This document shows positions 5,100 to 63,999 of a stretch of 64,000 bases of DNA, piece after piece. Source of the DNA: a virus; IMG/VR virus record IMGVR_UViG_3300027730_000009, positions 27,974-91,973 of that record; one strand, 5' to 3'. The translations under genes were made by a program, and so were the position numbers. The notes below the pieces were generated by a model, which was not told the origin of the DNA, ran no database searches, and saw nothing but the letters and a program-made list of their open reading frames with translations. The first letter of the stretch is position 1, and each line of letters begins with the position of its first letter.

Positions 5100-5131
5100 C
5101 AAACCTACAACAAAATTTCTATTCCGCCAAA
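5100..5131 (-). promoter_or_regulatory. Bacteroidota sigmaA-type promoter TTTG-N20-TAGGTTTG
   Basis: Exact -33/-7 consensus and spacing upstream of 5072. Confidence 0.7.
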
Positions 5132-5997
5132 TCTTTTTCAAAATTAATTTTTTGTTGTTTTTTCTCATCAATAAACCCCTGAACTCTCTTTCGAGCAACT
5201 TCGGTGTAGTTGGGTGACAATTCAATTCCAATCCAACGACGGTCTAATACTTCTGCGGCGACCAAACTAGTTCCACTACCAGCAAATGGGTCCAATACAA
5301 CATCATTCTTGTAAGTCAGAATTTTAATTGCTTTGGTTGGGATGTCCATTGAGAAAGTAGCTTTGGTCATACTCTTGGTATCGGCAAAATAATTCCACTG
5401 TCCAAATACCAAGTCAATGAATTCTCTTTTTTGGTCTTCAGTATAAACCTTTTTTTGTTTGGTAACACCATTCTCATCTTCAACATCAATCCATTCGTTT
5501 GTCCATTGAGGTTTACCCTTAATTTTTTTAATGTGTTCTTTCTTGTAAGCTAAGATAACACACTCTTTCGGGTTGTAGATGTAAGGTGAACTTGGGCTCA
5601 TCCAACTTCCCCATGCGGTGGTACGGCTACGGTGTGGTGACTCTTCTTCCAAATCAACGATTCCGAAGAATTTGTATCCGATTTGTTTCATAATCTGCCA
5701 AATTTCACTAACCATAAAAATTCTTCCACCCTTATTTTGCCGATTAATTTCATAAGGAATATTCAAAGCAATCCTTCCATCATCTTTTAAAACACGGAAA
5801 GCTTCAGTCATCCACTTTTTTGTGAATTCAAAATATTCTTCGGGTGTCATATCATCATCATGTACATCGTATTCAATACCAACCCCATATGGACAACTTG
5901 TAACAATCAAATCAACACAGGATTCAGGAAGGGTTTTCATTTCTTCAATACAATCTCCATTAATTATTGTACCGATAGTGTTTTCTAAATTTCTCAT
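5119..5997 (-). CDS. N4/N6 DNA methyltransferase, beta class, with variant SCPY motif
   Basis: GDC..DLIVTSCPY near N terminus; VVLDPFAGSGTS..GIEL near C terminus. Confidence 0.85.
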   Translation of the reverse strand: MRNLENTIGTIINGDCIEEMKTLPESCVDLIVTSCPYGVGIEYDVHDDDMTPEEYFEFTKKWMTEAFRVLKDDGRIALNIPYEINRQNKGGRIFMVSEIWQIMKQIGYKFFGIVDLEEESPHRSRTTAWGSWMSPSSPYIYNPKECVILAYKKEHIKKIKGKPQWTNEWIDVEDENGVTKQKKVYTEDQKREFIDLVFGQWNYFADTKSMTKATFSMDIPTKAIKILTYKNDVVLDPFAGSGTSLVAAEVLDRRWIGIELSPNYTEVARKRVQGFIDEKKQQKINFEKDLAE

Positions 5998-6760
5998 AGT
6001 TTTGTTTTTTTCTTTCTAAACATATTTTACAATCTGAGTAAATGTAATTATAAAAATTTACATTATCCAATTTGTTTTGTATTTGTAATCTAATTTTATC
6101 ATAAAGATTTATATTAATATTATTTCTCTTTAACTCTTCAACAACAAACTTTTGAAATTTTTCAGACGCTGAGACAATACTTGTGCAGTTTTTACTTTTT
6201 GTTGGATTGAAAGTGAATGACCCATCACCATCAAAATATCCTCTAATGAAATGTCTTTTGAGATTATTTTCAATGTTAGGGGAATCAATTGTAAATGTTT
6301 TTCGTGAGTGAATACCTTGTTTTTTTATTGAGTTTACCAATTTTTGTGAGTAAATTGCTAAGTGAACCATGTGAGACTTTGAAATCCCATCCTTGTATTT
6401 TACAGAATTATAACCCTCAACTATGAGATGATTTGATTTCAAATGTTCTCTAAAAAGTTCTAAATGTTCAACATCCTTATAAGACAATTTTAATTCGAGC
6501 GAACACCCTGAAGACCTCTCCCGAATATAACCATCCGCAAATAAAAAACCTAACCAGTATGCTTTCTCTTCGGAGTCAATTTTGTCAAAATAAGTTTCAT
6601 CAACTTTATAACGCCGATTATCCAATTCAATACCATGATTTTTCAATATTCGTCTAATTGGCGAAATTGACACACCGAAAAATTGTGAAACTTTATGAAT
6701 ACTTCTAAACTCTCTGTATTTGGACAGAACTTCTTGTTCATTCAATAATAACTTCTCCAC
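5960..6760 (-). mobile_element. Free-standing LAGLIDADG homing endonuclease
   Basis: Two motifs YWLGFLFADG and HFIRGYFDGDG; N-terminal HTH-like segment; overlaps methyltransferase start. Confidence 0.8.
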
Positions 6761-11369: not shown

Positions 11370-12392
11370 ATGAGTAAGTATGATTTTTTACTTAGAAAAT
11401 TCAACAATGGTCAATTGGGAAATATTTTAGGCGCCTTGGATGGTAAGATAGAACCTATTATTGGATTATTAGATAAAAAAGGATTACTTGACCAAATAAA
11501 TTTGACTTCTAATGATAACGAAGAATATCATAACCATGGCTATTATTATATCGCCAAAAACCATCCAGAAAAGTTTTTATCGATGATGGTAGAATTCTTC
11601 GATGAAATTTCTGTTGAGGGCGATGGTAGAACATTTTTAACTATTGCTGACCGAAGTGACCTATCCGAGTTATTTTGTGATAGTATTAGAAATGGTTTGA
11701 GTCAAAGCACCGTTGCAAACATTTTGGATGGTGAAAATGATTGGAGAAGTTTTGATGTATCATCTGAAAACCTTTATCGGGATGTTATCGAAGATTTAAC
11801 TCCCAAAAATGAAACTATTTTATATCAAAGAGTGTTAAAAGATTTTCTGAATGAAAGTGAGAAGATTTATCCTGAAACAGAGCTACTTCAATCAATTGCC
11901 GAAGAACAAGGTCATAATGATTTCGTTGAACTAACCCAAGAGAATATCCCTAAGATTTTCTCAGATGAAGATAGTGCTCTCTCAGTATTGGGTATTTTGG
12001 AAGATTTGAGGTCAGATTTACATTCTTTATACGACAGCGCATACAACGACGCGTATGAACCTGAACTATATGAAAACATTTTCAATTCATTAAGTGATTT
12101 TTTTGTTGGCAGAGGTGATTGGGTTTCAAAACAATCCCCTAAAGACCCAACCAAAACTCAATATGATTTTAGAATTGAAGTCAATGACTTTGTTGGTTTA
12201 ATGAAAAGGTATTTCGATGAACTCAGAGGTGAAGGTACCCATACTATTGAAAATTATGGTTATTTTATGAGTGTTCTACAAAATGGTATTGATATGGGTG
12301 TATTTGAATGCGTTAGGGTATTCGCACCTGACTATGCCGACTGGACCAAAATGAAAGAAAGTTTTAACGAGTTATTTTCAGACTATATCTAA
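11370..12392 (+). CDS. Acidic hypothetical protein
   Basis: 340 aa ORF; TATTTAT 6 nt upstream. Confidence 0.7.
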
Positions 12393-15300
12393 ATCAGCAA
12401 ACCTTTTTCTTTCGCCCTATTAAATAATTTTTCAGCTCTTTCTTCGAGTTGATTGATTATAGTATCCTGTTCTTTAAGAGCCTCAACACAAATAGCAATT
12501 ACTTCACGATATCTTACCATGTAAGTATTTTGCTCAGAACCAACTACTAATTCAGGGTAAAACTGAAGTATTTCTTGTGCAATGAATCCTATTTCTGGCT
12601 CTTCTTTCTTTCCCCAAGCATAATCTTCTAACCAATTGAATTCAACACCTCTAATTTTCTGTATTGTCTCCAATGCGGATTCAATTTGATGAATGTTTGT
12701 CTTTAATCTAAAATCTGAAGGTCCAGTAGGACCGGGAGCTCCTTGAGCACCCTGTGGTCCAGTTGGACCTTGAGCACCTGTACCAACTTTTTGTCCCTGA
12801 GCACCTTGAGGACCTGCAAGAGCTCCACCTATGTCACCTTGTGCTCCTTGAGGACCTCCACCTCCTTGAGCACCTTGAGCACCTTGTGGTCCTATTGCCC
12901 CTTGTGAACCTTGGGAACCTTGGGGACCAACACCTCCTTGAACACCTTGTCCACCGGCAGCACCTTGGAATCCTTGAGCTCCAGCCGCTCCTTGGAAACC
13001 TTGACCTCCTTGGGCTCCTTGAGCTCCTTGAGCTCCAGTCGCTCCTTGGGAACCTTGAAAACCTACAGGTCCTTGAGCTCCTTGAGGTCCTTTAGAACCT
13101 TGTGCTCCTTGAGGCCCTTGTGCCCCTTGTCCTCCTTGAGCTCCTTGAGGTCCTACAGCTCCTTGAGCACCTTGACTTCCTTGAAATCCTTGTCCTCCAG
13201 TTGCTCCTTGGAAACCTTGAGCACCTTGACCTCCTGTCGCCCCTTGGAAACCTTGTCCGCCTTGAGCTCCTTGAGGTCCTACAGCCCCTTGAGCACCTTG
13301 AGCACCTTGAAATCCTTGACCTCCTTGAGCTCCTTGAGGTCCTTTCGCACCTTGAGCACCTTGAGCTCCTTGGAAACCAGTAGTTCCTTGGGCACCTTGT
13401 GGGCCAACAGCACCTATATGTCCCGTAGCTCCCTGAAAACCTTGTCCTCCTTGAGCTCCTTGAGCACCTTCAGGACCGGTTGCTCCTGTAGCTCCTTGGA
13501 ACCCTTGAGCTCCGACGGCACCTTGTGAACCCTGTGGCCCTATATGACCTTGAGCACCTTGGAATCCTTGACCTCCTACCGCTCCCTGAGAACCTTGTGG
13601 TCCTTGAGCTCCTTGAGCACCTTGGAATCCCTGACCCCCTTGAGCACCCTGAGACCCTTGAGCACCTATGGCTCCTTGAGCTCCTTGGAATCCTGTTCCA
13701 CCTTGAGCCCCTTGCGGACCTAAGGCCCCTTGAGCACCTACCGCTCCTTGATTCCCTTGTCCTCCTTGTGCACCTTGGGACCCTACTGGACCTTGAGCAC
13801 CTTGAGCTCCTTGAAATCCTTGACCTCCCTGCGCTCCTTGGGGACCTTGAGCACCTTGACCTCCTGTCGCCCCTTGAAATCCTTGTCCTCCTTGAGACCC
13901 TTGTGGACCTTTTGGTCCTTGGGCACCTTGAGCTCCTTGAAATCCTTGTATCCCTTGAGCTCCTTGTGAACCAATAGCACCTTGAGCTCCTTGTGCTCCT
14001 TGAAATCCTTGACCTCCTTGAGCTCCTTGTGGTCCAGTTCCACCCTGAGCTCCGACAGCACCTTGAAACCCCTGTCCTCCTTGTGCCCCTTGAGCTCCCT
14101 GAGGTCCTTGCGCCCCTTGAGCTCCTTGGAACCCTTGAGCTCCGACGGCACCTTGTGAACCCTGTGGCCCTATATGACCTTGAGCACCTTGGAATCCTTG
14201 ACCTCCTACCGCTCCCTGAGAACCTTGTGGTCCTTGAGCTCCTTGAGCACCTTGGAATCCCTGACCCCCTTGAGCACCCTGAGACCCTTGAGCACCTATG
14301 GCTCCTTGAGCTCCTTGGAATCCTGTTCCACCTTGAGCCCCTTGCGGACCTAAGGCCCCTTGAGCACCTACCGCTCCTTGATTCCCTTGTCCTCCTTGTG
14401 CACCTTGGGACCCTACTGGACCTTGAGCACCTTGAGCTCCTTGAAATCCTTGACCTCCCTGCGCTCCTTGGGGACCTTGAGCACCTTGACCTCCTGTCGC
14501 CCCTTGAAATCCTTGTCCTCCTTGAGACCCTTGTGGACCTTTTGGTCCTTGGGCACCTTGAGCTCCTTGAAATCCTTGTATCCCTTGAGCTCCTTGTGAA
14601 CCAATAGCACCTTGAGCTCCTTGTGCTCCTTGAAATCCTTGACCTCCTTGAGCTCCTTGAGAACCTATTGCACCCTGAGCTCCGATAGCTCCTTGAAGAC
14701 CGATACCTCCTTGAGCTCCTTGTGCGCCTATTGCACCTTGTGCTCCTTGAGCCCCTTGAAATCCTTGCCCTCCTTGAGCTCCTTGAGCACCTATCGCTCC
14801 TTGTGCACCGATTGCTCCTTGTACTCCCTGAGGTCCAATTGCTCCTTGTACTCCTTGAGCACCTTGACCACCTACATGACCTTGAACACCCTGACCCCCT
14901 TGAGCTCCTTGTGAACCTATTGGGCCTATCGCTCCTTGAGCTCCTTGGAACCCTTGTCCACCTTGAGAACCTTGAGAACCTCGGGGACCTTGAGAACCTT
15001 CTAATCCCTGAGCTCCTTGTCCTCCTTGAGCCCCTTGAGCACCTTGAGAACCTATAGCACCTTGAGAACCTTGAGCACCTTGAGCCCCTATCAAACCCTG
15101 TGGACCTGGAACTCCTTGGGAACCAGTTGCACCTTGTGACCCTTGAGCTCCTTGAGGTCCTGTATTTTTATTACCTAACCAACCCTGAGGACCTATAATG
15201 TTACCAAAATTATTTTGGATAATATTGGTTCGAGTGTTACCTGAAATTCTTAATGTAGGTGCCGCGTCTATTATTTTAACAATAGAACCTGAATTAGGTG

Positions 15301-15412
15301 TCGAATATACTAACCCTGAACTATTGGATAGATAAACCCAATTGGTAACAGTAGACGCGGAATCAAGGAACTCAAATTTTCCATCCAAAGGATAAATTAC
15401 TATGTCAGCCAC
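12389..15412 (-). CDS. Collagen-like fibre chain A with C-terminal peptidase S74 chaperone
   Basis: 271 Gly-X-Y units; [15 protein letters not shown]. Confidence 0.9.
13491..14659. repeat. About 540-bp exact direct repeat, 630-bp period
   Basis: 13491-14029 matches 14121-14659. Confidence 0.85.
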
Positions 15413-18400
15413 CGATTAATGATTTGAGTTGATTAAGTTTAGTTTGTATTGATTTCACTCTTGTATTATTTTCTTTTAAAGTTGCAATACCTACGGAAAC
15501 AAGTAAATCGTATTGTAGATTTTTAAAACCATAAATATCAGTGCTCACGACTTCAGGAAAAAGTTTTTCTATTTCTTGAGCAATAAATCCTATACTTTTT
15601 CCTTTTAATAGATATTTCTGGTTTGGTTTATACCCCTCCAATTGAGGAATATTGTCTCTCCATTCGAATCTGACACCCTTCATACCAATTACACGACTTT
15701 TTATATTTTCTAATGATTTTACATTAGTTTTTAGTCGTTTATCTGATGGGGGACCTTGCGCTCCTTGGGCCCCTTGTGGTCCTTTTGGCCCTTGAGCACC
15801 TGTACCCCCTCCTATCCCTTGTGCACCTTGAGGTCCATCTGGTGGTTCCCCACCACCACCAGCTATTCCTTGAGCCCCTTGAGAACCTTGAAAGAATCCA
15901 TTTGCACCTGTGGCTCCTTGAAAACCTTGGACATTGCCAGCCCCTTGAGCTCCTTGAGGTCCAGTTGGCCCTGTTGCACCGGGGGTGATATTGGGTTGAC
16001 CGGGATGTCCAGTCACCCCAAATGAACCTTGGGCACCCTGAGGACCACCCTGAGCTCCTACAGCAGATATGGCACCCTGAGCACCAGTAGCCCCTTTAGC
16101 ACCAATAGCTTCAATTGGGTCAGCTGCAGCCCCGGGATTACCAGTATCACCAACAGCTCCACCAAATCCCGGAGCACCTGTAGTTACACTTGCAGCCCCA
16201 TTATTACCTGTCGTTCCTTGAGCACCAGTAAATCCCGGTGCACCCTGTGTCACCCCTGCAGCTCCGTTGTGACCTGTTGCACCTCCATTACCATTAGCTC
16301 CGGTATGTCCTTGGACGGCACCTTGAGCACCTTGAAATCCTGTGGCACCCTGAGCACCTCCAAATCCCGGTGCACCTTGGGTGGCACCTTGAGCTCCTTG
16401 AAACCCTGTAGCTCCTTGTGCACCAGTAAATCCTAAATCACCCGTCACAGAACTTTGAGCTCCTTGGGCTCCTTGACTTCCTTGACTTCCTTGGGCTCCT
16501 ACATGCCCTGTTGGTCCTCCTTGAGCCCCTATTTGTCCTTGGGCTCCTTGTGGACCTGTTGCGCCAGTGTGTCCTTGAACTATCGATGCTGGTCCTTGAG
16601 CTCCTTGAGGACCTTTAGTACCTTGAGCTCCGACGGCTCCTGATACTTCACTTGCGGTCCCACCGTGTCCTGTAGGTCCTTGTGCACCTATACCTCCTGT
16701 ATGTCCTTGAACAGCTCCTTGGGCACCTATATGTCCTTGGTCACCTTGAGCACCTTGTGCTCCTTTGGCACCCACAGCTGAAATCGCGTCACCGGCAGCT
16801 CCAGTGTGACCTGTAGCCCCTTGGGAACCTTGTGCTCCGGTAGCCCCTTGAACCGCATTTTGTGCACCTTGAGCTCCTTGAGAGCCTTGTGAGCCAGTAA
16901 ATCCCGGCGCTCCTTGTGTTGCCCCTGCAGCACCGATGTTACCTGTGGCTCCTTGGGAACCTGCAGCTCCCGTATGTCCCTGAACCGCACCTTGTGCTCC
17001 CTGAAACCCTTGTGCTCCTTGTGCACCAAAAATACCATCATGACCAGGGTTGACCCCTTGAGCGCCTTGTTGACCCACGGCACCTTGTGCCCCTATAATA
17101 CCTCCATGTCCTGTCACTGCACTTTGAGCTCCTGTTGCACCTTGAGCTCCCTGAGCTCCTTGACCACCGACAGCACCTTGGACAGCTCCTTGAGCTCCAA
17201 TGTGTCCCTGAGCTCCTTGAGCTCCAATAACACCAACATGTCCCTGAACCGCCGATTGAGGTCCTTGAGCTCCTTGAGGACCTTTGGTACCTTGAGCACC
17301 CTGAGCACCTGAGACTTCACTTGCGGTCCCACCGTGTCCTGTAGGTCCTTGTGCACCTATACCACCTGTATGTCCTTGAACAGCTCCTTGAGCACCTATA
17401 TGGCCTTGGTTACCTTGAGCACCTTGAGCTCCTTTCGCCCCATCAGTACCTAATCCTGCAGCAGCTCCTGTATTTCCCGTTCCTCCTTGAGCACCTTGTG
17501 CTCCGATGTTACCGGTTGGTAATCCTTGTGCTCCCACGGCTCCTTGAGCACCTTGAAAACCCATTACTCCAGAAGCACCTTGAGTACCACCATCAGCACC
17601 GATATTACCTGTAGCTCCTTGGGAACCTGCAGCTCCCGTATGTCCCTGAACCGCACCTTGTGCTCCCTGAAACCCTTGTGCTCCTTGTGCACCAAAAATA
17701 CCATCATGACCAGGGTTGACCCCTTGAGCGCCTTGTTGACCCACGGCACCTTGTGCCCCTATAATACCTCCATGTCCTGTCACTGCACTTTGAGCTCCTG
17801 TTGCACCTTGAGCTCCCTGAGCTCCTTGACCACCGACAGCACCTTGGACAGCTCCTTGAGCTCCAATGTGTCCCTGAGCTCCTTGAGCTCCAATAACACC
17901 AACATGTCCCTGAACCGCCGATTGAGGTCCTTGAGCTCCTTGAGGACCTTTGGTACCTTGAGCACCCTGAGCACCTGAGACTTCACTTGCGGTCCCACCG
18001 TGTCCTGTAGGTCCTTGTGCACCGATACCACCTGTATGTCCTTGAACAGCTCCTTGAGCACCTATATGGCCTTGGTCACCTTGAGCACCTTGTGCTCCCT
18101 TAGCTCCAATATCTAAAAATTCCGATGCCGCAGCTCCTGTATTTCCAGTTCCTCCTTGAGCACCTTGTGCTCCGATGTTACCGGTTGGTAATCCTTGGGC
18201 TCCCACGGCTCCTTGAGCCCCTTGAAAACCCATTACCCCAGACGCACCTTGAGTGCCACCATCAGCACCGATGTTACCTGTGGCTCCTTGGGAACCTTCA
18301 GCTCCCGTATGTCCCTGAACCGCACCTTGTGCTCCCTGAAACCCTTGCGCTCCTTGAGCACCAAAAATACCATCATGACCAGGGTTGACCCCTTGAGCGC

Positions 18401-19271
18401 CTTGTTGACCTACGGCACCTTGTGCACCTTCAAACCCTATATGTCCTTGTACAGCCCCTTGTGAACCGATAGCACCCTGTGCTCCTTGAGCACCGATTGC
18501 CCCTTGTGCTCCCTGAACAGCCCCTTGTGCTCCAACCTCACCTTGTGCCCCTTGGGCACCAATTGAACCTGTTTCACCTGCAACACCACCTTGGGCACCA
18601 ATACCACCTTGAGCTCCTTGAAAACCTTGAGCACCTTGTGCACCTATTGTTTCATTTGCCAATCCAACAACTCCCTCACCACCTTGAGCCCCTTGAGCTC
18701 CTTGAGCCCCTACGGTAGCCCCTTGAGCTCCTTGAGCACCTTGTGGTCCTTTAACACCTTGAGCACCTTGTGCTCCTTGTATACCTCCTTGGGCACCTTG
18801 AGCTCCGGCACCCCCTTGGGCACCTTGTGCTCCTTGTGCACCTGACACACCACCTTTAGCACCTTGAGCTCCTGTGTCCCCTTGAATCCCTTTAGCACCT
18901 TGAGCTCCTTGAGAACCTTGAGCACCCTGAGGACCTATAGGTCCAACTGCGCCCTGGGCTCCTTGGCCACCGATAGCACCTTGGAATCCTTGAATATTTA
19001 GTGGTGGTCCGACCCATTCACCGATGGTGTTTATCATCAGGGTTTCACCAGCCCAAACCCCTGATGTAGCATTGGTAATTGCAAGTCCTTTAGAGACTAA
19101 TCCTGTTGTCGAAATTTCAACAGTGTCAAATTGGGTTACCGAGGAGAAATTAATTCTGTCCGCCTCCAACATAACCACAACCATACCTGATGATACAGAA
19201 TCATCAAAAACAAAAAGTGGGTCAAGAGTTAAGGGAGAACCTTGAGGAAAAATAGTTACATTCAATGCCAT
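15405..19271 (-). CDS. Collagen-like fibre chain B with C-terminal peptidase S74 chaperone
   Basis: 341 units with periodic insertions; [15 protein letters not shown]. Confidence 0.9.
16630..18410. repeat. Tandem super-repeat, 666/669-bp period, nearly three copies
   Basis: 16948-17357 matches 17614-18023; GVNPGHD occurs three times. Confidence 0.85.
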
Positions 19272-19272
19272 A

Positions 19273-22200
19273 TCAATTTATTTCATTTTCAAGGTCTTCA
19301 ATTAATTTTTGTAGTTCTTCAATAAATACTTGTTGTTCTTTAATACCTTCAACAAGTAGGGCATTTAACTTCGGATAATCGATAGAATAATAACCGTTGT
19401 CTTTTAAGTCAACCACTTGTGGTATTACGGCTCTAACTTCTTGAGCAATAAATCCAATAGAGTGTATTTGTCCTAATTCTTTATAGGTATCATAATGTGG
19501 TGCCGATTCCAACCAATCAAATTCAACGGGATTCAATTTCAAAATTTTATCTAAAGCGTCTTCAATTGTAGTAACATTTGTTTTGAGTCTCGCGTCGGAC
19601 TTTTCACATGCTGTTTGGTTAGATAGTGCAGCGCCAGGCCCAGGGTCACATTCACCTATTGTCCAACAATTCACCCCATCACTAAAATTAGCGCCTCCAA
19701 AACAAGGAGGACAACTCGTACAGGCACTATCTGAGAAAATGTTACAACCGTTAGCCAGCGTCGCACAGTTGGAGTAGAAGGTAACATTTTCACCAGAACA
19801 TACTGCCTCACAGCTCTCTGGATTACAATTCGCATTGTGGGGATAACAAGCTACTCCAGTAGCTCCTTGTGCTCCTTGAAACCCGGTAGCACCTGGTGCA
19901 CCTGTATCACTAGCACCAGGAGCACCTTGGAATCCTATTATACCGACGTCCGGAATCCCTTGGGCTCCTTTTTGTCCTTGTGGTCCACCAGGGGTACCTT
20001 GAGCACCTGTTGCACCAGGGGTAGTGTTATTAGCACCTGGTGCGCCACCAGGTCCAGGTGGACCGCCCCCGCCAGGAGGTCCTGCAGCTCCTTGTGAACC
20101 TTGCGGACCCTTAGTACCTTGCGCGCCTGTTGGACCTGGATTACCTGGAGGTAAAGTTGAACCTGTAGCTCCTTGTGCTCCCTGTACCCCTTGAGGACCT
20201 CTCGCCCCTTGTGACCCTTGTGGCCCAACAGCACCCTGAGCACCTTGAGGACCTGTAGCTCCTATGGTACCTTGCGCCCCTTGTGGTCCAACAGCACCCT
20301 GTATCCCTTGTGCTCCTTGAGGTCCTCTACCTCCTTGAGCTCCTTGAGGTCCTACTCCTCCTTGACTTCCTTGAGAACCTTGAGGTCCTCGGGCACCGAC
20401 ATCACCAGTTCCTCCTCCAGCACCTTGTGAACCTTGAGAACCCTGTGGTCCTCTAGCACCGACATCACCAGTTCCTCCTCCAGCACCTTGTGAACCCTGA
20501 CCCCCTTGAGGTCCTCTATTACCTTGAGCTCCTGTACCTCCTGTTGCTCCTTGTGAACCTTGACCACCTTGAGGTCCACGAGCACCTTGCGAACCTTGAG
20601 CTCCCTTGGCTCCTTGTGCCCCTTGAGACCCTTGTGGTCCGATATTTCCTTGAGCGCCAGTTTCTCCTGTTGCCCCTTGTACCCCTTGTGCTCCTTGACC
20701 CCCTATCAGTCCTTGAGCTCCTTGGAATCCGACAGCACCTTGAGCTCCTTGAACTCCTTGTGGACCTCTAGCCCCTTGGACACCTATTGGACCTTGAGCA
20801 CCTTGTGCTCCTTGTACTCCTTGTGGACCTCTTGGTCCTTGGACTCCCTGAGGACCTATGGCACCTTGAACACCTTGGGAACCTTGTGGTCCTCTATTAC
20901 CTTGAGCACCTGTTCCTCCTTGCGCACCTTGCGACCCTTGGGCTCCTTGAGGTCCTCTATCTCCTTGAGCTCCTTGGCCTCCTTGAGCCCCTTGAGCACC
21001 TTGAGCACCCTGAGGTCCTAAGGCTCCGGTGTGTCCAGTGGCTCCAGCAGCACTCTGTGAACCTTGAGACCCTTGTGGTCCTCTTGCCCCGATTTCTCCA
21101 GTAGCTCCTTGAGCTCCTTGGGACCCTTGAGCACCTTGTGGTCCTACGCTACCCTGAGCTCCAGTTCCTCCAGTTGCTCCTTGTACACCTTGTGCTCCTT
21201 GAGGTCCAACGGACCCTTGGGACCCTTGAGCTCCCTTAGCCCCTTGAGCTCCTTGAGACCCTTGTGGTCCGACATTTCCTTGAGCTCCAGTCTCTCCAGT
21301 TGCTCCTTGTGCCCCTTGTGCTCCTTGACCTCCTATCAGTCCTTGTGCTCCTTGGAATCCGACAGCACCTTGAGCCCCTTGGGCTCCTTGCGGACCTCTA
21401 GCTCCTTGAGACCCTATTGGACCTTGAGCCCCTTCCGCTCCTTGTACTCCTTGTGGACCTCTTGCCCCTTGTGAACCTTGTGGTCCGACAGCACCCTGAA
21501 GTCCTTGTGCCCCTTGAGGTCCTCTGGCACCTTGGGCTCCTTGAGCTCCTACGGCATCATTTTGTGCTCCTTGTGCCCCTTGAGGTCCTCTACCTCCTTG
21601 TGACCCTTGAGGTCCAACAGCACCTTGAACTCCTTGGGCACCCTGAGGTCCTAAAGCTCCGGTATCTCCTGTTGCTCCAGGAGCACTCTGAGAACCTTGA
21701 GACCCTTGTGGTCCTCTTGCCCCGATTTCTCCAGTAGCTCCTTGAGCTCCTTGGGACCCTTGAGCACCTTGAGGTCCTACGCTACCCTGAGCTCCAGTTC
21801 CTCCAGTTGCTCCTTGTACACCTTGTGCTCCTTGAGGTCCAACGGACCCTTGGGACCCTTGAGCTCCCTTAGCCCCTTGTGCCCCTTGAGACCCTTGTGG
21901 TCCGACATTTCCTTGAGCACCTGTTTCTCCAGTTGCTCCTTGTACCCCTTGTGCTCCTTGACCTCCTATCAGTCCTTGTGCTCCTTGGAATCCGACAGCA
22001 CCTTGAGCCCCTTGGGCTCCTTGCGGACCTCTAGCTCCTTGAGACCCTATTGGACCTTGAGCCCCTTCCGCTCCTTGTACTCCTTGTGGACCTCTTGCCC
22101 CTTGTGAACCTTGTGGTCCGACGGCACCCTGAACACCTTGTGCCCCTTGAGGTCCTCGGGCTCCTTGGGCACCTTGAGCACCTACGGCATCATTTTGTGC

Positions 22201-23778
22201 TCCTTGTGCCCCTTGAGGTCCTCTATTTCCTTGAGCTCCTTGGCCTCCTTGAGCCCCTTGAGCTCCTTGAGCGCCCTGAGGTCCTAAGGCTCCGGTGTGT
22301 CCAGTGGCTCCAGCAGCACTCTGAGAACCTTGAGACCCTTGTGGTCCTCTTGCCCCGATTTCTCCAGTAGCCCCTTGTGCTCCTTGGGACCCTTGAGCAC
22401 CTTGGGGTCCTATGTTTCCCTGAGCACCTTGGGCACCTTCACCACCTTGTGCTCCTTGAGCACCCTGTGGACCAACTAATCCTTGAGCCCCTTGAGCCCC
22501 TTTTGAGCCTTGTGACCCTTGTGGCCCGAAAGGTCCTACTAATCCTTGGGCACCTTGTCCTCCTTTTGCTCCTTGTACCCCTTGAGCTCCTTGGGGACCC
22601 GCAGCACCTTGAGCACCTTGAGAACCTATTCCTCCTTGAGCACCTTGTGCCCCTTGAGGCCCGATAGCACCTGTGGCTCCTTGGAAACCCTCGGCACCTT
22701 GTGCTCCGATGTTACCCGTGGAGCCGATTGCCCCCTCAGAACCTTGAGCACCAGTAGTTCCCTCAGCACCTTGAGCACCAGTAGGTCCTATTGCTCCTTG
22801 AACACCCTGAGGCCCTTTGGGACCTTGTGCACCTTGAGCACCAACAGCAGCATTTAGAGTATTGTTGTAATCCAAAAATTCGATACCAAAAAACATTTTG
22901 ATATCTTGATTCACATTAGTGCTTCCTGAAGTAAAAGATATCCCAAAATCCCAATAGTTACCAAACAAGGATGTACTAGTAACATTATAGAGATAATTAC
23001 CATCGAGAGGTCCATCAACATCGAGTAATTCAACTCTTAAATCCCAGTTATTATCAATTTGAGAAAATATACTACTTAAATCAACAAGTCCAGCTCCTTG
23101 AGGTGTAGTTCCTCCTGAAACTGAGACTGACATTGTGTTAACACCAGTCACTGTTGTGTCACTATTAGTCGCCGCAACCCTTAGAGCCCCATCAAAAGTC
23201 GAGTCAGCTACCCATGTCCACCAATATGGACCATAAATTGTTGGTTGACCACCACCTTGATTTCCTTGTGGTCCTTGAGCACCTTGCGCACCTTGGGCAC
23301 CAATGGCACCCTGAGCACCTGTAATATTGGTACCAGGTCCTGTCCAATTTCCTGTACCATCCAAGACTTGTGTACCTCCGACCGATAAAAAGTTAGTGAC
23401 CGTAAGGGTTGAAAACACATAAACCTCAGGAGAACATCCTCCCAAGTTTGATGAAAGAACATCACTAATATCTGTTACTGTACTTGGTCTTACACAACGA
23501 TAATAAGTTAGACCCGAAGGAACATTAATAGTTTCTAATACCCCTGTACTACAATTACGATATGTCGCAACCCCCGTTCCTCCACCAGTTGCCAAAAATG
23601 AAAAGTAATCACAATTTTCTTGGGGTGCAAATAAAACTTGGTTTTCAAATAACAAAGAGGCATCATATAACACCAAAATTTTGAACTTAAAACTTGGGTC
23701 AGTCTCAAATAATATTTCAGGAATGTTTCCAGGTCTTGAACGTATATTACTTGGAAATATTGTTAGATTCTTTGCCAT
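19273..23778 (-). CDS. Collagen-like fibre chain C with inserted domains and C-terminal peptidase S74 chaperone
   Basis: 8 + 330 units; Cys-rich domain; [15 protein letters not shown]. Confidence 0.9.
20590..22400. repeat. Tandem super-repeat, 633/630-bp period, nearly three copies
   Basis: About 21060-21500 matches 21693-22133; [17 protein letters not shown] occurs three times. Confidence 0.85.
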
Positions 23779-24159: not shown

Positions 24160-24471
24160 TTAGTATTTGTTTATCACCTCCAGCAATTGAGATTGACTCA
24201 TAACTCCCACATTAGAGAACACCTCTTTACCTTCTTTATACACTTTAAGTGTGGGAACCGAGCGGATTCCAAGTTCCATAACGAAATCTCTGTCAGAGTC
24301 GATATCTAAACTAAAGATACCCATGGATAGTTCTTGTCCTGACTTTTCCAAACTCCCGAGGTTACCCATTAAAACTTTACAGGGACCACACCATGTGGCA
24401 AACAAATCCAAGACAAATGTCTCGTTATTTTTGATTTTTTCTTTTACTTGTTCAGATGATAGTTGTGTCAT
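24160..24471 (-). CDS. trxA: Thioredoxin
   Basis: FATWCGPCK, IRSVPT. Confidence 0.9.
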   Translation of the reverse strand: MTQLSSEQVKEKIKNNETFVLDLFATWCGPCKVLMGNLGSLEKSGQELSMGIFSLDIDSDRDFVMELGIRSVPTLKVYKEGKEVFSNVGVMSQSQLLEVINKY

Positions 24472-28938: not shown

Positions 28939-29784
28939 TCAGTAATTCATTATAAGCAACTCCTCACCCATATTTTGTTTTTTTCCCTTAGTAGCGGCAG
29001 CGGCCTTAGCAAAAGAACGACGTTCCCATCGATACCCATTCTCAGGGAACCACTGACCCAAGAGTTCAAAGTCATAGTACGACAAAGAGAACTTACCCTG
29101 AATCTCTTTCAAGGCATTCGCCAACCTCTCGTGGTCGTTCCTGTCAAAGTCATGGTTAGAATAGTAATTCTCGGTTTTCCAATAGGGTGGGTCCATGTAG
29201 AAATAAGTGGTTGGTGAATCGTATTTTGAAATAACCTCTTGAAAGTCCATATTTTCAACAAAAGTAATCTTTTCGAAATGTTCACGAAAAGAAAGTTTTT
29301 TCAGTTTGTCCATAAAGATTAGAACTTTACAACGATATTTGCCCTTATAATCCGTGTAATTGGAAGTTTCTGGTTTAGAACCCGAAAAAACTTGACACAA
29401 GACATATACATACTTCGCAGCAATTACAAAGTTAGGTTCATCACCAATGACCAAATTTTCATTGAATATTTCTTTTTGAAATGTTTTGAACATAACCTCA
29501 AATTCGGGTGGGGTGTTTTCAACACCAAGTTGTTGACATGGATATCGGGAGAGTTCATCCCAAAGTCTATCATACTCTTTTGCACATTTGAATAGGTTAG
29601 CGTTTAGTCTATTGTAGTCATTATAAACGACTGTCTTGAGGTTTGGGTACTTTTTGAGGTCCATATTAAAGAACACCCAGAACATCCCTGAAAATCCCTC
29701 TACATATGTTTCAATGTTAGTGGGGATAAACGGAACAATCCATTTACCAATCCTAGCCTTTCCTCCGATATATGATATTGCCAT
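28939..29784 (-). CDS. Dam-like (D12 class) adenine methyltransferase
   Basis: YIGGK..YVEGFSG..ND; FYMDPPY; EELLIMNY. Confidence 0.85.
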   Translation of the reverse strand: MAISYIGGKARIGKWIVPFIPTNIETYVEGFSGMFWVFFNMDLKKYPNLKTVVYNDYNRLNANLFKCAKEYDRLWDELSRYPCQQLGVENTPPEFEVMFKTFQKEIFNENLVIGDEPNFVIAAKYVYVLCQVFSGSKPETSNYTDYKGKYRCKVLIFMDKLKKLSFREHFEKITFVENMDFQEVISKYDSPTTYFYMDPPYWKTENYYSNHDFDRNDHERLANALKEIQGKFSLSYYDFELLGQWFPENGYRWERRSFAKAAAATKGKKQNMGEELLIMNY

Positions 29785-30528: not shown

Positions 30529-30672
30529 ATGTCATGTCAAAATTGTAAAAATAAAACACCTTTTCAAATTTCATCCAAGTTAAATTGGATGCTTGTTTTC
30601 ACCTCTTACGGATTCGTATCGGTTATTTACTCAACTTATAAATTAGTTTCCTACCTTCTCAGTTTGATTTGA
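30529..30672 (+). CDS. 47-aa CxxC membrane microprotein (not in ORF track)
   Basis: Hand translation [40 protein letters not shown]. Confidence 0.5.
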
Positions 30673-31578
30673 TTTATCAAACCTAACATTTAATTTTACA
30701 TACATATCCCCATTTGGGAACCCTTTATTTTTTAACCTCAGGGGTTTAGATGTATCAAAAATAATGGGTGCAGGTATTTTAAGTTCACCATCAGGGTGGT
30801 GTATAATATAAAAGTCCTCAGTAATTGTTTGTAAGTCCAAAAACAAATTGTAAATTAAATCCGAACCCATTTTTTGAAATTCACCGTTTTGTTCGATGAT
30901 TGGTTGGATAACCAAATTACCATACATACCTTGGATAAAGTCACCTCGACCTTCTAACTTCATGAATTGACCATCATCAATCCCTTTTGGAAGGGATACC
31001 GTAATAGATTCAAAATGATTTTTAGTTCCAACACCCGAACAACTATGACATCTATTGATTAATATTTGCCCTTTAGCTTGGCAATGTACACACGCCACTC
31101 TAACTCTCTGTTGAAAAAATCCTGAACCTAAAACTTGAATGCTGTGTCCCGCACCATGACAGACGGCACACAATTGAGTGTCCCCTCCTGAACCACCACA
31201 ATCTGAACAGGCAATGTTCCTTTGATAGTTGATTGTTTTTGGACCTCCTTTATAGGACTCCATTACCGTTACAGGTAGTTTTATTATCTTATCAGCAACT
31301 TTTCTTATTGGCGGTGCTCCCCCACCTTGATTGTACATGTTTTTGAAAAACTCTTCGAATGAGCCACCAGCAAAAGGATTGTCTTTTTGTCTAAGATAAT
31401 CTATTTTTTTCTTAGGGTCTGAAAGAACATCGTATGCCTCGGCAATCTCTTTGAATTTCTCTCCCCCATCAGGATTTACATCAGGATGATATTTCTTAGA
31501 TAGTAATCTATATTGTTTTTTAATTTCTTCATCAGTGGCATCTTCCTTAACACCTAAAATTTCAAAGTAGTTTTTCAT
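30643..31578 (-). CDS. dnaJ: DnaJ co-chaperone
   Basis: J-domain HPD, four CxxCxGxG-like repeats, C-terminal domain. Confidence 0.9.
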
Positions 31579-57803: not shown

Positions 57804-60800
57804 ATGTCTTTTTATTTTAAGGGTATTAAAATTGCCGATTGTTGTTATGTTCTCAATCTACCAACCAGGATAGATAGAAAAAAAGTTGTTGATGAACTTT
57901 TATCATCATTGTTTTTTTCTGGTTACACTTTTTTTGATGGTCAAGTAATTGAAAATCCAGAATTAAAAAAATTTGGATGCACCTTTTCTCATTTACAGAT
58001 TTTTCAAGAATTTTTAAAAACCGATAAACAAACTATTGTCATATTGGAGGACGACATAAAATTATTCAATGGGGTCAACAATTATCATTTGGATAATGTA
58101 TTCAATAATTGGGAAGAAACGATTTCTAATTATGATGTAATTGCTTTGGGGACAAAACTTTTACCAAGAAGTGTAATAGAACCTGAAGGTGAAACGCATG
58201 GAAATTTCAAAGAATTACTTTGCGCACATGGATTTTTTTACCACCGGACTGTTGTAGAACATATTGTTGATAAGTTATCAAATTTCGATAAACCTGGACA
58301 CCCTTTATACAAGTGTGCGATTGATATGTTTTTAAATGACATTTCAAATGTAAGATATCGGTTCAGACATTTTCATGAACTTAAAAGTTTTAAATTTGGA
58401 ATTACAATTCCAATGATTTTTAATCAATCAGCCGGCTATTCAGATAATGAAGAAACTAACGAAAATTACGAAAATTTAATTGAGCAAGCATATTGGAATG
58501 CTTTACCCATCCCAAAAAATGAAGTTATGAAAGACGAAAAAAAACCAAGAGGTTTTGTATATTATTGCAACGAAAAATACATTCCAATTGTTGAGCAATC
58601 TATACGATTAATGAGGAAATATACATCATTACCCATATACGTTTACCTTGTTGACTGCAGTTATGATTTCAAACTACCCAATGTAAACACCATAATATGG
58701 TCAGTCGAATTAGAAAATTTCGATGATGAGATGTATACCAAAGAGGATGAGAATTTTTACATTCGAAGAGAAGACAAAAGGTTCTACAAGCTTTTAATTC
58801 AACGACCATTAATTGTAAAACATTGTTTAGAAAATTTTTTAGAAACCGCAGCTTATGTTGACACCGATTCAGTCCCTATGCCTTGGGTTGAAAACTTTTT
58901 CAATCATTTTCATTATGATTCAGAAGTCCCTTATTTTACAGAATGTTTTTACAGTTATCTATCCCTCAATGGTAGAGGAAGTGGTCCTGATAATGACTTT
59001 ACAAACACGCTAGAACACGAAACTTGTGAGCTATTAGGTGTTGACCAAAGTGTGAGAAAATGGTATCGTCAAACTGGCTATTTTATCGCAGGACAAAACT
59101 GTTTGGATTTCTTAGACGAATGGCATTGGTTTTGCACCCACCCAAAAATTTTGGAAAATCCTGAGCTTTATGCTCCCTTCCATGAAGAAACCATTATGAA
59201 CGTAATGATGTGGAAAAAAAAGGTTTTCAAAGGGCTTCATTTGGTTTACGTAAACGCTACGTCTGAAACCGTTGATAAGCTCTTTAATGAAATTACTTTC
59301 AATGGTGAAAATCAAATTTTGGGTCCATGGTTTGGAGTTCCCGGTGAATTAGAACACATCTACTTTTTACATGGTGAAAAAAGATTGGAAGTAATGAGTG
59401 AAATGTCAAAAAAAATAGACAACTACACAACCAAAACTAAACCAAGAATTCTTTTTCTAGCCCCCCATTTATCAACTGGAGGAATGCCAGGATTTTTACT
59501 TAAAAGGATTTTGACCCTTCAAGAATATAGAAACGAGTTTGATTTATATGTTGTTGAATACTCCAATTACAGTGATGAATATGTTGTTCAAAAAACTAGC
59601 ATAAAACACATCATTCCAAAATCCAATTATTTCACTTTGGGTTCAGACAAAATGGAGTTAATTGACATTATTAAGAGGAATAAAATTGATGTAGTTCACA
59701 TTGACGACAATATTGAATCTTTAGAAACTTTCAATCGGACCCCAACAGCATTGATGAATGCGTTGTATGCAAACGACAGGTCTTGGTTTATTGTAGAGAC
59801 TTGTCACAACGTTTCTTTCAAACCTGAATTATCTAAAACTTTTCATCCGGATGCTTATGCTTTTTGTAGCCCATGGCACAAAGCAGTTAGTTTTTCTACA
59901 ATGCCTTCATATTCCGAGGTTATCGAATTTCCCATCGATACTTTGTCAACACCAGATGAAATTAAAGAGGGGATTCAAACTGCACTTGGTTTAAATCCAG
60001 AAAAAATTCATATTGTAAATGTAGGTCTTTGGACACCAGGAAAGAATCAAAAAGAGGGTATTGAACTTGCAAGATTATTTGAATTTAGTAATCCCGAATA
60101 TGAGTTTCACTTTATTGGCAATCAGGCACCTAATTTCAAGGACTACTGGGAACCATTGATGATGAATTTACCAAGTAATGTTAAAGTTTGGGGTGAACGT
60201 AAAGACGCATCACTTTTTATTCAAGCTTCTGATGCATTCCTCTTTAATTCTACTTGGGAATGTAATCCTTTAGTTTTGCGTGAAGCCATATCTTTTGGTA
60301 AAAAAATTCTAGCAAGAAACCTTCCGGAATATATGGGAATGTTTGACGAGTATATCGTACCAATTAACAGCAACTTAGAGGAGCTTAAAACTAAGCTCGT
60401 TGACTTGGTAAAATCAGACATTTGTTATTTGGTTCCCGAGGGACAATCCAAGGATTTTGCAAATAAAAATGCTGATTTATATCATAAGGTAATTAATTCT
60501 CCAAAAATGGAGAATGAAAGAATGGTTACGGATGTAAAAATTATTCAACATTTTGTAAATCAACCATTCCTAGAAATCGTTGGTAACTCGGATTCGGATT
60601 TTAGAGTTGAATTTTATGATGAACAGGGTGTTTGCCATTATAACAACACGATTAAATCAAATCATTGGATACGACTTAATCGACAATACTACACCAAATG
60701 GACAACTAAAGTTTATAAAGACGACAAATTGATTCACAACAAAACTTTGGATTTAAAAAATAAGAGAGTCTTCATTTCTTTTGATAGCAAATCTTTAGGA

Positions 60801-61598
60801 GATAGCGTTGCTTGGATACCTTATGTTCTAGAGTTTCAAACTAAACATGACTGCAAAGTTATTGTATCCACATTTTGGAATAAGCTTTTCAAAAACACAT
60901 ATCCCGAACTTGAATTTGTTGAGCCAGGAGCTGTTGTCCACAACTTAATGGCTATGTACAAGTTAGGTTGGTTTTACAATATGGATATGGAACCAGTTGC
61001 ACCAAATCTTATTCCACTGCAAAAAGCAGCATCGAACATTTTAGGTTTAGATTTCGAAGAAATTCAACCGAGAATAGATGTCCATATTAAAGAAAGACCC
61101 TACAAGGAAAAGTATGTGGCTATTGCAACCAATTCAACTGCAGGTTTGAAATTTTGGACAAGAGATGGTTGGCAACAACTTGTTGATTACTTAATATCAA
61201 AAGGGTATAAGGTGATTAACGTTTCAAAAGAAAAAAATCCTTTCAGGGGAGTGAACGAATTAAAAGATACTTCTATTGAAAATACAATGAACGTGATACA
61301 CCACAGTGAATTTCTAATAGGACTTTCCAGTGGATTGTCTTGGCTTAGTTGGGGTATGGGAAAACACGTTGTAATGATTTCGAACTTTACAAAAGATGAC
61401 CACGAATTTACTTCAAATTGTACTAGAATCACGAATCCTGAAGTATGTAATGGTTGTTGGAATAATCCAAAATTTGTATTCGACAAAGGAGATTGGGATT
61501 GGTGTCCAGAACACAAAGGAACCCCAAGACAATTTGAATGTCACACTTCTATCACCCCAAAAATGGTGATAAATAAAATTGAAAAACTAGTTAGTTGA
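57804..61598 (+). CDS. Four-domain glycosyltransferase: GT25 + GT-A (DxD) + GT4 + Aah/TibC-like GT9
   Basis: NL..R.DR, GC..SH, LEDD; YVDTD; HLSTGG, KNQ, ECNPLVLRE; SLGDSVAW, GLSSGLSWL, CNGCW..WCP.HKGT.RQFEC. Confidence 0.8.
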   Translation: MSFYFKGIKIADCCYVLNLPTRIDRKKVVDELLSSLFFSGYTFFDGQVIENPELKKFGCTFSHLQIFQEFLKTDKQTIVILEDDIKLFNGVNNYHLDNVFNNWEETISNYDVIALGTKLLPRSVIEPEGETHGNFKELLCAHGFFYHRTVVEHIVDKLSNFDKPGHPLYKCAIDMFLNDISNVRYRFRHFHELKSFKFGITIPMIFNQSAGYSDNEETNENYENLIEQAYWNALPIPKNEVMKDEKKPRGFVYYCNEKYIPIVEQSIRLMRKYTSLPIYVYLVDCSYDFKLPNVNTIIWSVELENFDDEMYTKEDENFYIRREDKRFYKLLIQRPLIVKHCLENFLETAAYVDTDSVPMPWVENFFNHFHYDSEVPYFTECFYSYLSLNGRGSGPDNDFTNTLEHETCELLGVDQSVRKWYRQTGYFIAGQNCLDFLDEWHWFCTHPKILENPELYAPFHEETIMNVMMWKKKVFKGLHLVYVNATSETVDKLFNEITFNGENQILGPWFGVPGELEHIYFLHGEKRLEVMSEMSKKIDNYTTKTKPRILFLAPHLSTGGMPGFLLKRILTLQEYRNEFDLYVVEYSNYSDEYVVQKTSIKHIIPKSNYFTLGSDKMELIDIIKRNKIDVVHIDDNIESLETFNRTPTALMNALYANDRSWFIVETCHNVSFKPELSKTFHPDAYAFCSPWHKAVSFSTMPSYSEVIEFPIDTLSTPDEIKEGIQTALGLNPEKIHIVNVGLWTPGKNQKEGIELARLFEFSNPEYEFHFIGNQAPNFKDYWEPLMMNLPSNVKVWGERKDASLFIQASDAFLFNSTWECNPLVLREAISFGKKILARNLPEYMGMFDEYIVPINSNLEELKTKLVDLVKSDICYLVPEGQSKDFANKNADLYHKVINSPKMENERMVTDVKIIQHFVNQPFLEIVGNSDSDFRVEFYDEQGVCHYNNTIKSNHWIRLNRQYYTKWTTKVYKDDKLIHNKTLDLKNKRVFISFDSKSLGDSVAWIPYVLEFQTKHDCKVIVSTFWNKLFKNTYPELEFVEPGAVVHNLMAMYKLGWFYNMDMEPVAPNLIPLQKAASNILGLDFEEIQPRIDVHIKERPYKEKYVAIATNSTAGLKFWTRDGWQQLVDYLISKGYKVINVSKEKNPFRGVNELKDTSIENTMNVIHHSEFLIGLSSGLSWLSWGMGKHVVMISNFTKDDHEFTSNCTRITNPEVCNGCWNNPKFVFDKGDWDWCPEHKGTPRQFECHTSITPKMVINKIEKLVS

Positions 61599-62571: not shown

Positions 62572-63999
62572 TTATACTTTCTTGGGATAGTATTCCAACC
62601 AAACTTTTGGAACATCTTTACGCTCTGCGTGAACGATGAAGAACGCACTTATTTCTCCACAACCACATCCTATAAAGACTTTGTTGTCTTCGGTTTTTTC
62701 AACGTAATGTGTGCAACCTTTTCCGATTGGTGTTAAGTAAACTGTGATACTATTCTCATCCACAAGACCTACCCAATAGTCCGGTAATTCGATTTCAGTT
62801 GAATTTGTCTTTCCTCTGAAATAAACACCATGTTCTGGTCCCTCCAAGTTACCGTATTGAAGTCTCCATGGTTCTTCTTTTGTTGGGTGGGAAATATCAA
62901 ATGATTTTGAAACTGCTGTGATTGCACTGAAGTTCAACAAACTAGCACTTCCTTGACCATCAAAAGTACCTGTATTGACATCTACTTCAGTAACAGCACC
63001 AAGTCCGATTGTTGTTCCATCATCAGAAATACTGGAGTCACCGATAGCCGTTGAACCAGTAAACTTAACTACTTGGTTTGTAGTACCTCCAACTGCAACT
63101 GAAGTTCCGCTTGTTCCTGAAGAACCACTTGTTCCCGAAGTACCTGCACTACCAGAACTACCCTGTATTCCAACAGTGTAAAAACTAACTACACAACCCT
63201 CAGATGGACCTGACGGTAATGATGTACCATTATCATCGATAAAAGTTACCCCAAAAGTCCAATAAGAACCACTATCTGTTATACTTGTTATTTCATACGC
63301 AGCTCGTCTAATAGTGCTAGGAATGTATAAACTAATTATTGAACCTAATCCCAAACCTTGCCAGAAAGTTGACCATATTTGCGGTACTGAATAATTGTTA
63401 ACCTCACTAATTTTTATTGTTGTGACATTGGTCGTAACATTGGAATCTGTGGACATTCCTAAAGGCACTGGATTAGCACCTGATGTACTTGTCAAGAACC
63501 AAGCCCCAGAGTTTCCTGGGGGTCCTATCTCACCTGAGCTTCCTGAAGAACCGCTTGTTCCCGAAGTACCACTTGTCCCAGAAGAACCCGAAGTACCAGT
63601 TGAACCACTTGTTCCAGATGAACCTGAAGTTCCTGAGGTTCCAGTCGTACCTGATGTTCCTGAGGTTCCAGTTGTACCACTTGTTCCCGATGTTCCCGAT
63701 GTACCAGTTGTTCCTGAAGTACCCGAAGTTCCAGTAGTACCACTTGTTCCCGAAGTTCCTGATGAACCTGAAGTGCCGGTGGTTCCACTTGTCCCAGATG
63801 TCCCTGCGGTACCGCTTGTTCCTGATGAACCTGAAGTTCCTGAGGTTCCAGTCGTACCTGATGTTCCTGAGGTTCCAGTTGTACCACTTGTTCCCGAGGT
63901 GCCTGATGTACCAGTTGTTCCTGAGGTACCCGAAGTTCCTGTTGTTCCGCTAGTTCCAGAGGTACCTGAGGTTCCTGAAGTACCTGTTGTGCCACTTGT
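62572..63999 (-). CDS. 3' part of (Gly-Thr-Ser)n collagen-like tail fibre, open beyond the window
   Basis: Frame is stop-free from 63999 (TSGTTGTSGTS...); C-terminal KSFDISHP..LEGPE.GVY.RG fibre-type domain. Confidence 0.8.
   Translation of the reverse strand, partial: TSGTTGTSGTSGTSGTSGTTGTSGTSGTTGTSGTSGTSGTTGTSGTSGTTGTSGTSGSSGTSGTAGTSGTSGTTGTSGSSGTSGTSGTTGTSGTSGTTGTSGTSGTSGTTGTSGTSGTTGTSGTSGSSGTSGSTGTSGSSGTSGTSGTSGSSGSSGEIGPPGNSGAWFLTSTSGANPVPLGMSTDSNVTTNVTTIKISEVNNYSVPQIWSTFWQGLGLGSIISLYIPSTIRRAAYEITSITDSGSYWTFGVTFIDDNGTSLPSGPSEGCVVSFYTVGIQGSSGSAGTSGTSGSSGTSGTSVAVGGTTNQVVKFTGSTAIGDSSISDDGTTIGLGAVTEVDVNTGTFDGQGSASLLNFSAITAVSKSFDISHPTKEEPWRLQYGNLEGPEHGVYFRGKTNSTEIELPDYWVGLVDENSITVYLTPIGKGCTHYVEKTEDNKVFIGCGCGEISAFFIVHAERKDVPKVWLEYYPKKV

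Follow-up and report, generated by a model that had tools for sequence, protein, structure and literature searches.

A 64,000-nucleotide stretch of viral DNA (positions 27,974 to 91,973 of IMG/VR record IMGVR_UViG_3300027730_000009, referred to below as the window) contains three neighbouring minus-strand genes, C, B, and A, that lie head to tail in the genome of an uncultured large phage and encode collagen-like proteins, each of which has a period of seven Gly-X-Y triplets (a heptad). Based on sequence comparisons within the window and with its relatives, this period is probably a selected structural register of three co-evolving chains, the simplest form of which would be an A·B·C heterotrimer, and the three chains are very probably aligned alongside one another within a single fibre. 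The registration of the chains with one another, which had been proposed in an initial annotation of this sequence, is strongly backed by co-located nodes (the features that recur in each heptad), matched unit counts, coordinated insertions and deletions (indels), and covariation between the chains at zero shift.

Gene layout and the seven-triplet period

The products of genes A, B, and C follow a common plan, in which an N-terminal domain precedes 270-345 collagen triplets or units and a C-terminal Peptidase_S74 domain (all coordinates in this paragraph are on the minus strand). Gene C (19273..23778, 1501 amino acids (aa)) encodes an N-domain (23320-23778), a first set of 8 triplets (23248-23319), a globular insert of 135 aa (22843-23247), the main collagen domain of ∼330 units with a 21-aa period (19849-22842), an 83-aa Cys-rich domain (19600-19848), and the S74 domain (19276-19599; PF13884, 60.5 bits, residues 1394-1456). 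Gene B (15405..19271, 1288 aa) encodes an N-domain (18990-19271), a collagen domain of ∼345 units with a 22-aa period, or 7 triplets plus 1 residue (15747-18989), and an S74 domain (15408-15746; PF13884, 43.9 bits). Gene A (12389..15412, 1007 aa) encodes an N-domain (15161-15412), ∼271 collagen units with GGQ-GFQ every 21 aa (12719-15160), and an S74 domain (12392-12718; PF13884, 54 bits). The ATG of gene B lies 1 nucleotide past the TGA of gene C, the GTG start of gene A overlaps the last codons and the stop of gene B (an 8-nucleotide overlap by the annotated open reading frame (ORF) coordinates), and translational coupling is tight for both C-B and B-A. The span given in the initial annotation, 12716-22842, agrees with these boundaries, as 12716 falls near the end of the A collagen and 22842 is the start of the C main collagen.

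Collagen and Peptidase_S74 are the only domains found by Pfam in the three proteins. The collagen triple helix repeat PF01391 is present in all three genes, at 371.5, 211.9, and 290.5 bits against a cut-off of 27.2 (E=1e-113 for gene C), and PF13884 occurs once per gene, at the C terminus, always above its cut-off of 22. The S74 domains open with a Ser and a Lys five residues apart (SDARLK, SDKRLK, and SDFRLK, or S-D-x-R-L-K), the same spacing as in the intramolecular chaperone auto-cleaving (ICA) domain of endoNF, in which S911 and K916 are the catalytic dyad (PMC8326128). From the Pfam matches and this dyad, the S74 domains of A, B, and C are predicted to be of the self-cleaving ICA type. 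The collagen of A and B directly abuts the cleavage Ser, and in C the Cys-rich domain sits before S74. The N-domains are homologous, beginning with M-A-x-N-I-x-I-F-P and ending with W-x-G-x3-N-(I/T)-x, and the proteins match PHROG tail-fibre families. Their Gly-X-Y regions are poor in Pro (3.5-7%) and rich in Gln (16-25%), so that these helices, if they are triple-helical, would need to be stabilised by something other than imino acids. The 48-57% G+C of the collagen genes, compared with ∼33% around them, follows from their Gly, Ala, and Gln codons, and plus-strand ORFs inside the collagen genes (e.g. 12911-13528) were rejected as real genes because they are by-products of repeat composition.

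The initial annotation described a strict marker at every 7th triplet of each chain. When autocorrelation was calculated from rarity-weighted, non-Gly residues and compared with 200 triplet shuffles, peaks were found at the predicted lags, 21 aa for A (z=10.9) and C (z=26.7) and 22/44 aa for B (z=19.5). In chain A, 260 triplets form one unbroken run, GG. occupies one heptad position in 26/35 cases with GF. at the next position in 26/28, and GGQ-GFQ keeps one phase of the 7-triplet frame across more than 30 consecutive heptads. In chain B, 25 triplet runs are 7 triplets long and 16 are 6 triplets long, the stretches between runs measure 1 residue (27 times) or 4 residues (14 times), the run starts are spaced by 22 aa in 37 and by 25 aa in 4 of 47 cases, and the interruption is followed by GH 17 times and by GA 21 times. 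In chain C, GPQ is found at one heptad position in 35/46 cases, and all 21 G.R units lie one position before it. The period is therefore real in all three chains, with two minor amendments to the earlier description: chain B slips by one extra triplet at four places (the 25-aa units), and chain C has 7 irregular units that are not 3 residues long, two of them NDAV copies. Three SAA/SAP units of chain C are Gly-to-Ser replacements.

The seven-triplet period is not a mere remnant of duplication. Tandem Repeats Finder detects periods of 63 base pairs (bp) in A and C and 66 bp in B, with matches of merely 66-74%. When codon pairs for the same amino acid were scored for the share that use the identical codon, the values at the period lags and at other in-frame lags were 0.520 and 0.524 for A, 0.463 and 0.430 for B, and 0.498 and 0.469 for C, all near the level set by codon usage alone. 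The lack of a 21/22-codon signal in synonymous choice indicates that silent sites of the heptads have reached saturation and that the pattern has nonetheless been kept in the protein. Recent duplication in these genes is confined to large super-repeats of 630-669 bp (ten heptads each). That the period is more than a 63-bp duplication history is borne out both by the absence of a synonymous signal and by the persistence of the 21/22/21 pattern in deeply diverged orthologues.

In the 7/2 model of collagen, the true repeat is 7 triplets, or ∼6 nm, and in the 10/3 model it is 10 triplets (PMC3933592). The 7/2 geometry on which the initial annotation drew is thus correct, as is its statement that Pro-poor sequences favour 10/3 symmetry, toward which imino-poor collagen peptides do lean (PMC3933592).

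Shared register and coordinated change

Searches with patterns and with the N-domains recovered syntenic C-B-A cassettes in many viral and metagenome contigs; all of the data are metagenomic assemblies of repeats. The cassettes lie between a group of DUF932, orf548, orf106, and thioredoxin genes and the convergent pair orf340 and orf331, with the full flanking gene set present in part of the loci. The flanking proteins of the most distant lineage show 31-56% identity, and the B N-domains of related cassettes are 27-47% identical; a search of the phage collection with the B N-domain and with orf548 found no relative from a cultured phage. In every lineage, the period is 21 aa in A and C and 22 aa in B.

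The markers kept across lineages are Gly-Gly-Gln in A, a four-residue G/S-x-(V/T/P)-(Q/T) in B, and Gly-Pro in C. This comparison does not support Phe, His, and Arg as markers in the continuous stripes of Phe, bulge/His, and Arg/Pro suggested earlier, as these residues are missing or rare in other lineages and the Gly-Gly, the insertion, and the Gly-Pro are conserved instead. Phe after GGQ in chain A is frequent in the window phage and in L010/L026 and rare in L011/L004 and L009, His after the chain B insertion is mostly limited to the window phage, and Arg before GPQ in chain C is absent from the L002/L011 lineage. No acidic partner for the chain C Arg was seen, by eye, at the matching level in A or B. 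This pattern of conservation is more readily matched by a node of conformational character than by stripes of side chains.

The position of the nodes was compared by counting units, a unit being a triplet or a triplet with its insertion, from the common junction motif W-x-G-x3-N-(I/T)-x that ends the N-domains. In three lineages, the chain B insertion falls at unit index 15 and then at every seventh unit (22, 29, ...; 1 mod 7), with 40/43 and 34/36 in phase. The chain A GG lies at the matching index, 1 mod 7, in 26/35 cases in the window, in 19/36 in L004, and in the first rows of L010. In chain C, G-x-R is at 6 and GPQ at 0 mod 7 in the window and L010, and the node is at 1 mod 7 in L011. Beginning with unit 16, the nodes of A and B therefore share a unit index, and that of C is at most one triplet away.

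Unit counts agree among the chains within a lineage and differ between lineages. The C/B/A counts are 301/300/301 in several contigs of the L011 type, 314/314/320 in L010, and 356/356/365 in L026; the A value of L010 becomes ∼314 if the three 5-6-aa interruptions of its chain A are counted as insertions, and like reasoning brings that of L026 to ∼356. The match holds in units and not in residues, since at equal unit counts B is 36-45 residues longer than A and C; the numbers are equal across chains because the 22-residue unit of B counts as one heptad. In the window, the counts are 338/345/271, with a match between B and C but not with A.

Changes in length are also shared among the three genes. 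Between L026 and L010, which share 89-92% identity, each gene has a single indel, of +132 aa in A, +132 aa (6x22) in B, and +126 aa (6x21) in C, all at ∼unit 153, a gap placement that is ambiguous within repeats by up to the repeat length. L010 has a three-heptad (21-unit) repeat at units ∼202-270 in all three genes, and a 12-aa deletion close to unit 290 is common to the three genes of one sublineage. Among relatives that are at least 80% identical, the indels of the periodic zone are 22, 22, 22, 44, 66, and 132 aa (plus one of 19) in B and 21, 42, 63, and 126 aa in C; almost all are whole heptads. In the window itself, a 70-unit super-repeat of 630 bp is present in two copies in A (13397..14656, minus strand, 93.6% nucleotide identity), and the corresponding copies are 666/669 bp in B (92.7%) and 633/630 bp in C (92.6%). 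The super-repeat starts at a unit index of ∼50-57 in all three genes, and the copies are equally old, with third-position identities of 0.886 in A, 0.870 in B, and 0.864 in C. B and C hold an additional, older copy at 82-87%, so that A has two copies and B and C have three.

The flavour of individual heptads also covaries between chains. In L011, the heptad self-similarity matrices of the chains correlate at zero shift only (B-C, r=0.27, z=5.4; A-B, r=0.25, z=4.5; A-C, z=2.6), and the observed value was reached by 0/2000 permutations for B-C, 0/2000 for A-B, and 8/2000 for A-C. In the same lineage, the B node GA(S/N)(T/Q) pairs with a non-Pro unit of C in 14/14 cases, and other node types pair with GP in 18/22 (Fisher p=1.6e-6). 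The cross-chain correlation in L010 has z = 2.8-3.7. In the window, the correlation is flat, because the ten-heptad super-repeat makes it shift-invariant and A lacks ten rows.

Proposed assembly of the fibre and alternative explanations

A mechanism that would account for these observations uses Gly-Gly-Gln in A, the one inserted residue in B, and Gly-Pro-(Q/T) in C, with Arg before it in some lineages, as nodes. The three C-terminal S74 domains would gather one A, one B, and one C chain, which would zip into a mixed triple helix of ∼290 nm (∼340 units x 0.86 nm). Once per 7/2 supercoil repeat (∼6 nm), the extra residue of B would loop out beside the side-chain-free Gly-Gly of A; register slips and changes in length would be tolerable only as whole heptads; and the S74 domains would then self-cleave at the Ser of S-D-x-R-L-K. 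The matching of unit counts suggests that the extra residue of B would add no rise, and a zero-rise insertion is easier to picture with two regular templating chains than in a B3 trimer. The regular nodes might also act as hinges. The more specific proposal, that the product of the cassettes is a heterotrimeric A·B·C collagen that occurs naturally outside animals, with its register kept over ∼290 nm by a seven-triplet node code that matches the 7/2 supercoil repeat and with its length evolving only in whole, coordinated heptads, we regard as evenly balanced.

Several observations weigh against a heterotrimeric register. Chain A of the window (271 units, compared with 345 in B and 338 in C) is exactly one 70-unit super-repeat short, so that a strict A·B·C helix would have only two chains over part of its length. 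A simple assembly collapse of A is not the obvious cause, because its 93%-identical repeat pair was resolved, and chain A is in register with B and C at both ends despite the 70 missing units. In some related contigs, the counts of B and C differ (293 and 301, 289-290 and 297, and 310 and 297, respectively), and these mismatches of one or two heptads could be either genuine or artefacts of assembly. Units were parsed heuristically, and a common node phase could be inherited in part from the ancestor of the three paralogues. Chain C has globular domains, and A and B do not. All of the S74/ICA domains of solved structure described in PMC8326128 are homotrimers. A homotrimer would accommodate a one-residue insertion naturally, as each of its chains has it, and a trimer with the insertion in a single chain would have to form a bulge.

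These points bear on the possible, though unlikely, alternative that A3, B3, and C3 are three separate homotrimers, each folded by its own S74 domain, in which the nodes would be periodic hinges or sticky stripes and selection would act for equal reach or for in-register packing. Each gene does carry its own complete S74 domain with a Ser-Lys dyad, the solved ICA domains are of this form (PMC8326128), and tandem paralogous fibre genes are common in phages. In addition, an insertion in all three chains would keep the one-residue stagger, and neither the 70-unit-short A nor a B that is off by one or two heptads would do harm. However, selection for equal reach leaves unexplained the indels at the same coordinates in three genes and the correlation of heptad flavours at zero shift only. 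As it is units and not residues that match, in-line insertions would put B3 ∼13 nm (two nodes) out of step, and after release of S74, A3 and B3 would end as bare collagen without a tip domain.

It is improbable that the nodes, rather than forming an inter-chain register, are evenly spaced sites, every 6 nm, that are recognised by a periodic host surface or by a partner that binds or modifies the fibre, for example a glycosyltransferase or a decorating protein, although such sites could coexist with either model of assembly. The strict recurrence of the motifs and the presence of a multi-glycosyltransferase gene of 1264 aa in the window (57804-61598) are compatible with partner sites, but the Phe, His, and Arg side chains of the nodes are not conserved, only Gly, Pro, and the insertion are, and the coordinated indels would be left unexplained. 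The idea that the period is a mere footprint of amplified 63-bp/66-bp DNA units, with no role of its own, can draw on the 63/66/126/189-bp arrays found by Tandem Repeats Finder, on the large recent internal duplications, and on the periods of 12, 15, 24, and 48 aa in other collagen-like proteins, but it is very improbable and largely refuted, as synonymous sites lack a 21/22-codon signal, the periods and node positions are kept across lineages with flanking proteins that are ∼31-56% identical, abundant 9-bp GAQ repeats should slip by single triplets when the indels are whole heptads, and the changes are coordinated over three genes. A selected register shared by A, B, and C remains the reading that we consider probable.

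Neighbouring genes and comparison with known systems

The source record is a 92-kb IMG/VR virus contig with a CheckV completeness estimate of 31%. Its genes include one for a T4-type RNA ligase/tail-fibre attachment protein and an SbcC-like gene, the best matches of which are weak ones to uncultured huge-phage records. PHROG and Pfam scans of the neighbouring genes and of the rest of the contig revealed no hallmark gene of a capsid or a tail by which the fibre could be assigned to the virion.

A thioredoxin gene (24160..24471, minus strand; PF00085, E=4.6e-19) lies directly upstream of gene C and occupies the same position in all 11 related loci checked, with 55-84% identity. Because C is the only chain with Cys-rich domains, a role of this thioredoxin in their disulfide chemistry is conceivable. 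The 135-aa insert of gene C (22843-23247) has a 79% identical stretch in an unrelated 1878-aa protein, rich in Cys and in Thr/Pro linkers, that is encoded on another viral contig (L001:721-6357), and it looks like a mobile module. The L001 protein was rejected as an orthologue of gene C, as only a module of 130 aa is shared (79%) and it has neither collagen nor S74.

A fourth collagen-like ORF (62572-63999, minus strand) is cut by the end of the window. It has GTS/GTT triplets, the GTT spacing alternates between 4 and 3 triplets to give a period of roughly 7 triplets, and its C-terminal domain is not S74. The 1264-aa protein encoded at 57804-61598 on the plus strand has glycosyltransferase domains of the GT25, GT1/GT4, and GT9 types. 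The collagen galactosyltransferases of animals belong to GT25, but the A, B, and C fibres are nearly devoid of Lys, which makes a link uncertain. Other genes of the window (5119-6760, 28939-29784, and 30643-31578, minus strand) encode an N6/N4 DNA methylase, which has a LAGLIDADG endonuclease-like ORF beside it, as well as a D12 adenine methylase and a DnaJ of full length with a J domain, CXXCXGXG, and a C-terminal domain.

The products of A, B, and C belong to the class of collagen-like, S74-capped phage tail-fibre proteins, which likewise have a Gly-X-Y shaft followed by an S74 domain with an S-x4-K dyad, but they are atypical of it. More than 7,000 collagen-like proteins were scored in the homologue search, and many of the best matches carry S74; unlike A, B, and C, the P0016-like collagen-S74 proteins of ∼1560 aa, the largest group sampled, follow no heptad rule. 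Neither a matched cassette of three genes nor a one-residue insertion at periodic spacing has been described for such phage fibres in the literature that was searched. Collagen-like phage fibres are common but have been treated as plain homotrimeric rods, and here a long-range register is conserved and three genes change in lock-step.

Regular nodes do occur in other collagen-like proteins. P0014, P0101, and P0115 have a 21-aa period as in A and C, and P0062, P0109, and P0071 have a 23-aa period, or 8 triplets minus one residue (a G-x-G interruption at each node); the terminal domains of both sets differ from those of A, B, and C, and a motif search found no S74 motif in either set. The regular insertion of chain B had been called very unusual for a collagen, a view that needs tempering, as these unrelated proteins with 23-aa periods show that regular interruptions are not unique. 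Regular nodes 21-23 residues apart may be a wider theme.

BclA of Bacillus anthracis has a 21-residue repeat, (GPT)5GDTGTT, the number of which sets the length of the filament. It is a homotrimer from a single gene with a C1q-like head, and its repeat is a recent, polymorphic DNA unit with no insertion and no partner chains. Pfam found no such C1q-like/TNF-like head in A, B, or C, and the likeness is limited to the 7-triplet (21-aa) repeat. The gene triplets of Pasteuria ramosa resemble the cassette in layout, with three collagen-like genes, one per group from three groups, that always follow one order and share their orientation (PMC13233619). Their products are found on the bacterial spore surface and have other terminal domains, and the part of the account considered here reports no heptad period or coordinated indels (PMC13233619).

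In mode of action, the phage chains would resemble the animal heterotrimeric collagens, including type IV collagen, and C1q, with its A, B, and C chains encoded by adjacent genes. Those proteins have three paralogous chains with interruptions that line up between them, and the chains are matched in length, as they are in three of the phage lineages; C1q has an insertion of one residue that is specific to one chain, at the same level as a Gly replacement. These proteins have no homology to A, B, and C outside Gly-X-Y, and they trimerise through C-propeptides, NC1, or gC1q, whereas A, B, and C would use S74. The interruption recurs ∼45 times at a fixed 7-triplet spacing in the phage chains and occurs once or irregularly in the animal ones. 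The regular one-residue insertion provides a ready model of how a triple helix tolerates interruptions. If the mixed helix exists, it would offer a natural solution to chain register in a Pro-poor helix, an open problem in the design of collagen-mimetic peptides, and a way to test directly if 7/2 symmetry is adopted by a natural collagen that is poor in Pro, and it would be the counterpart, in a virus of prokaryotes, of the heterotrimeric collagens of animals.

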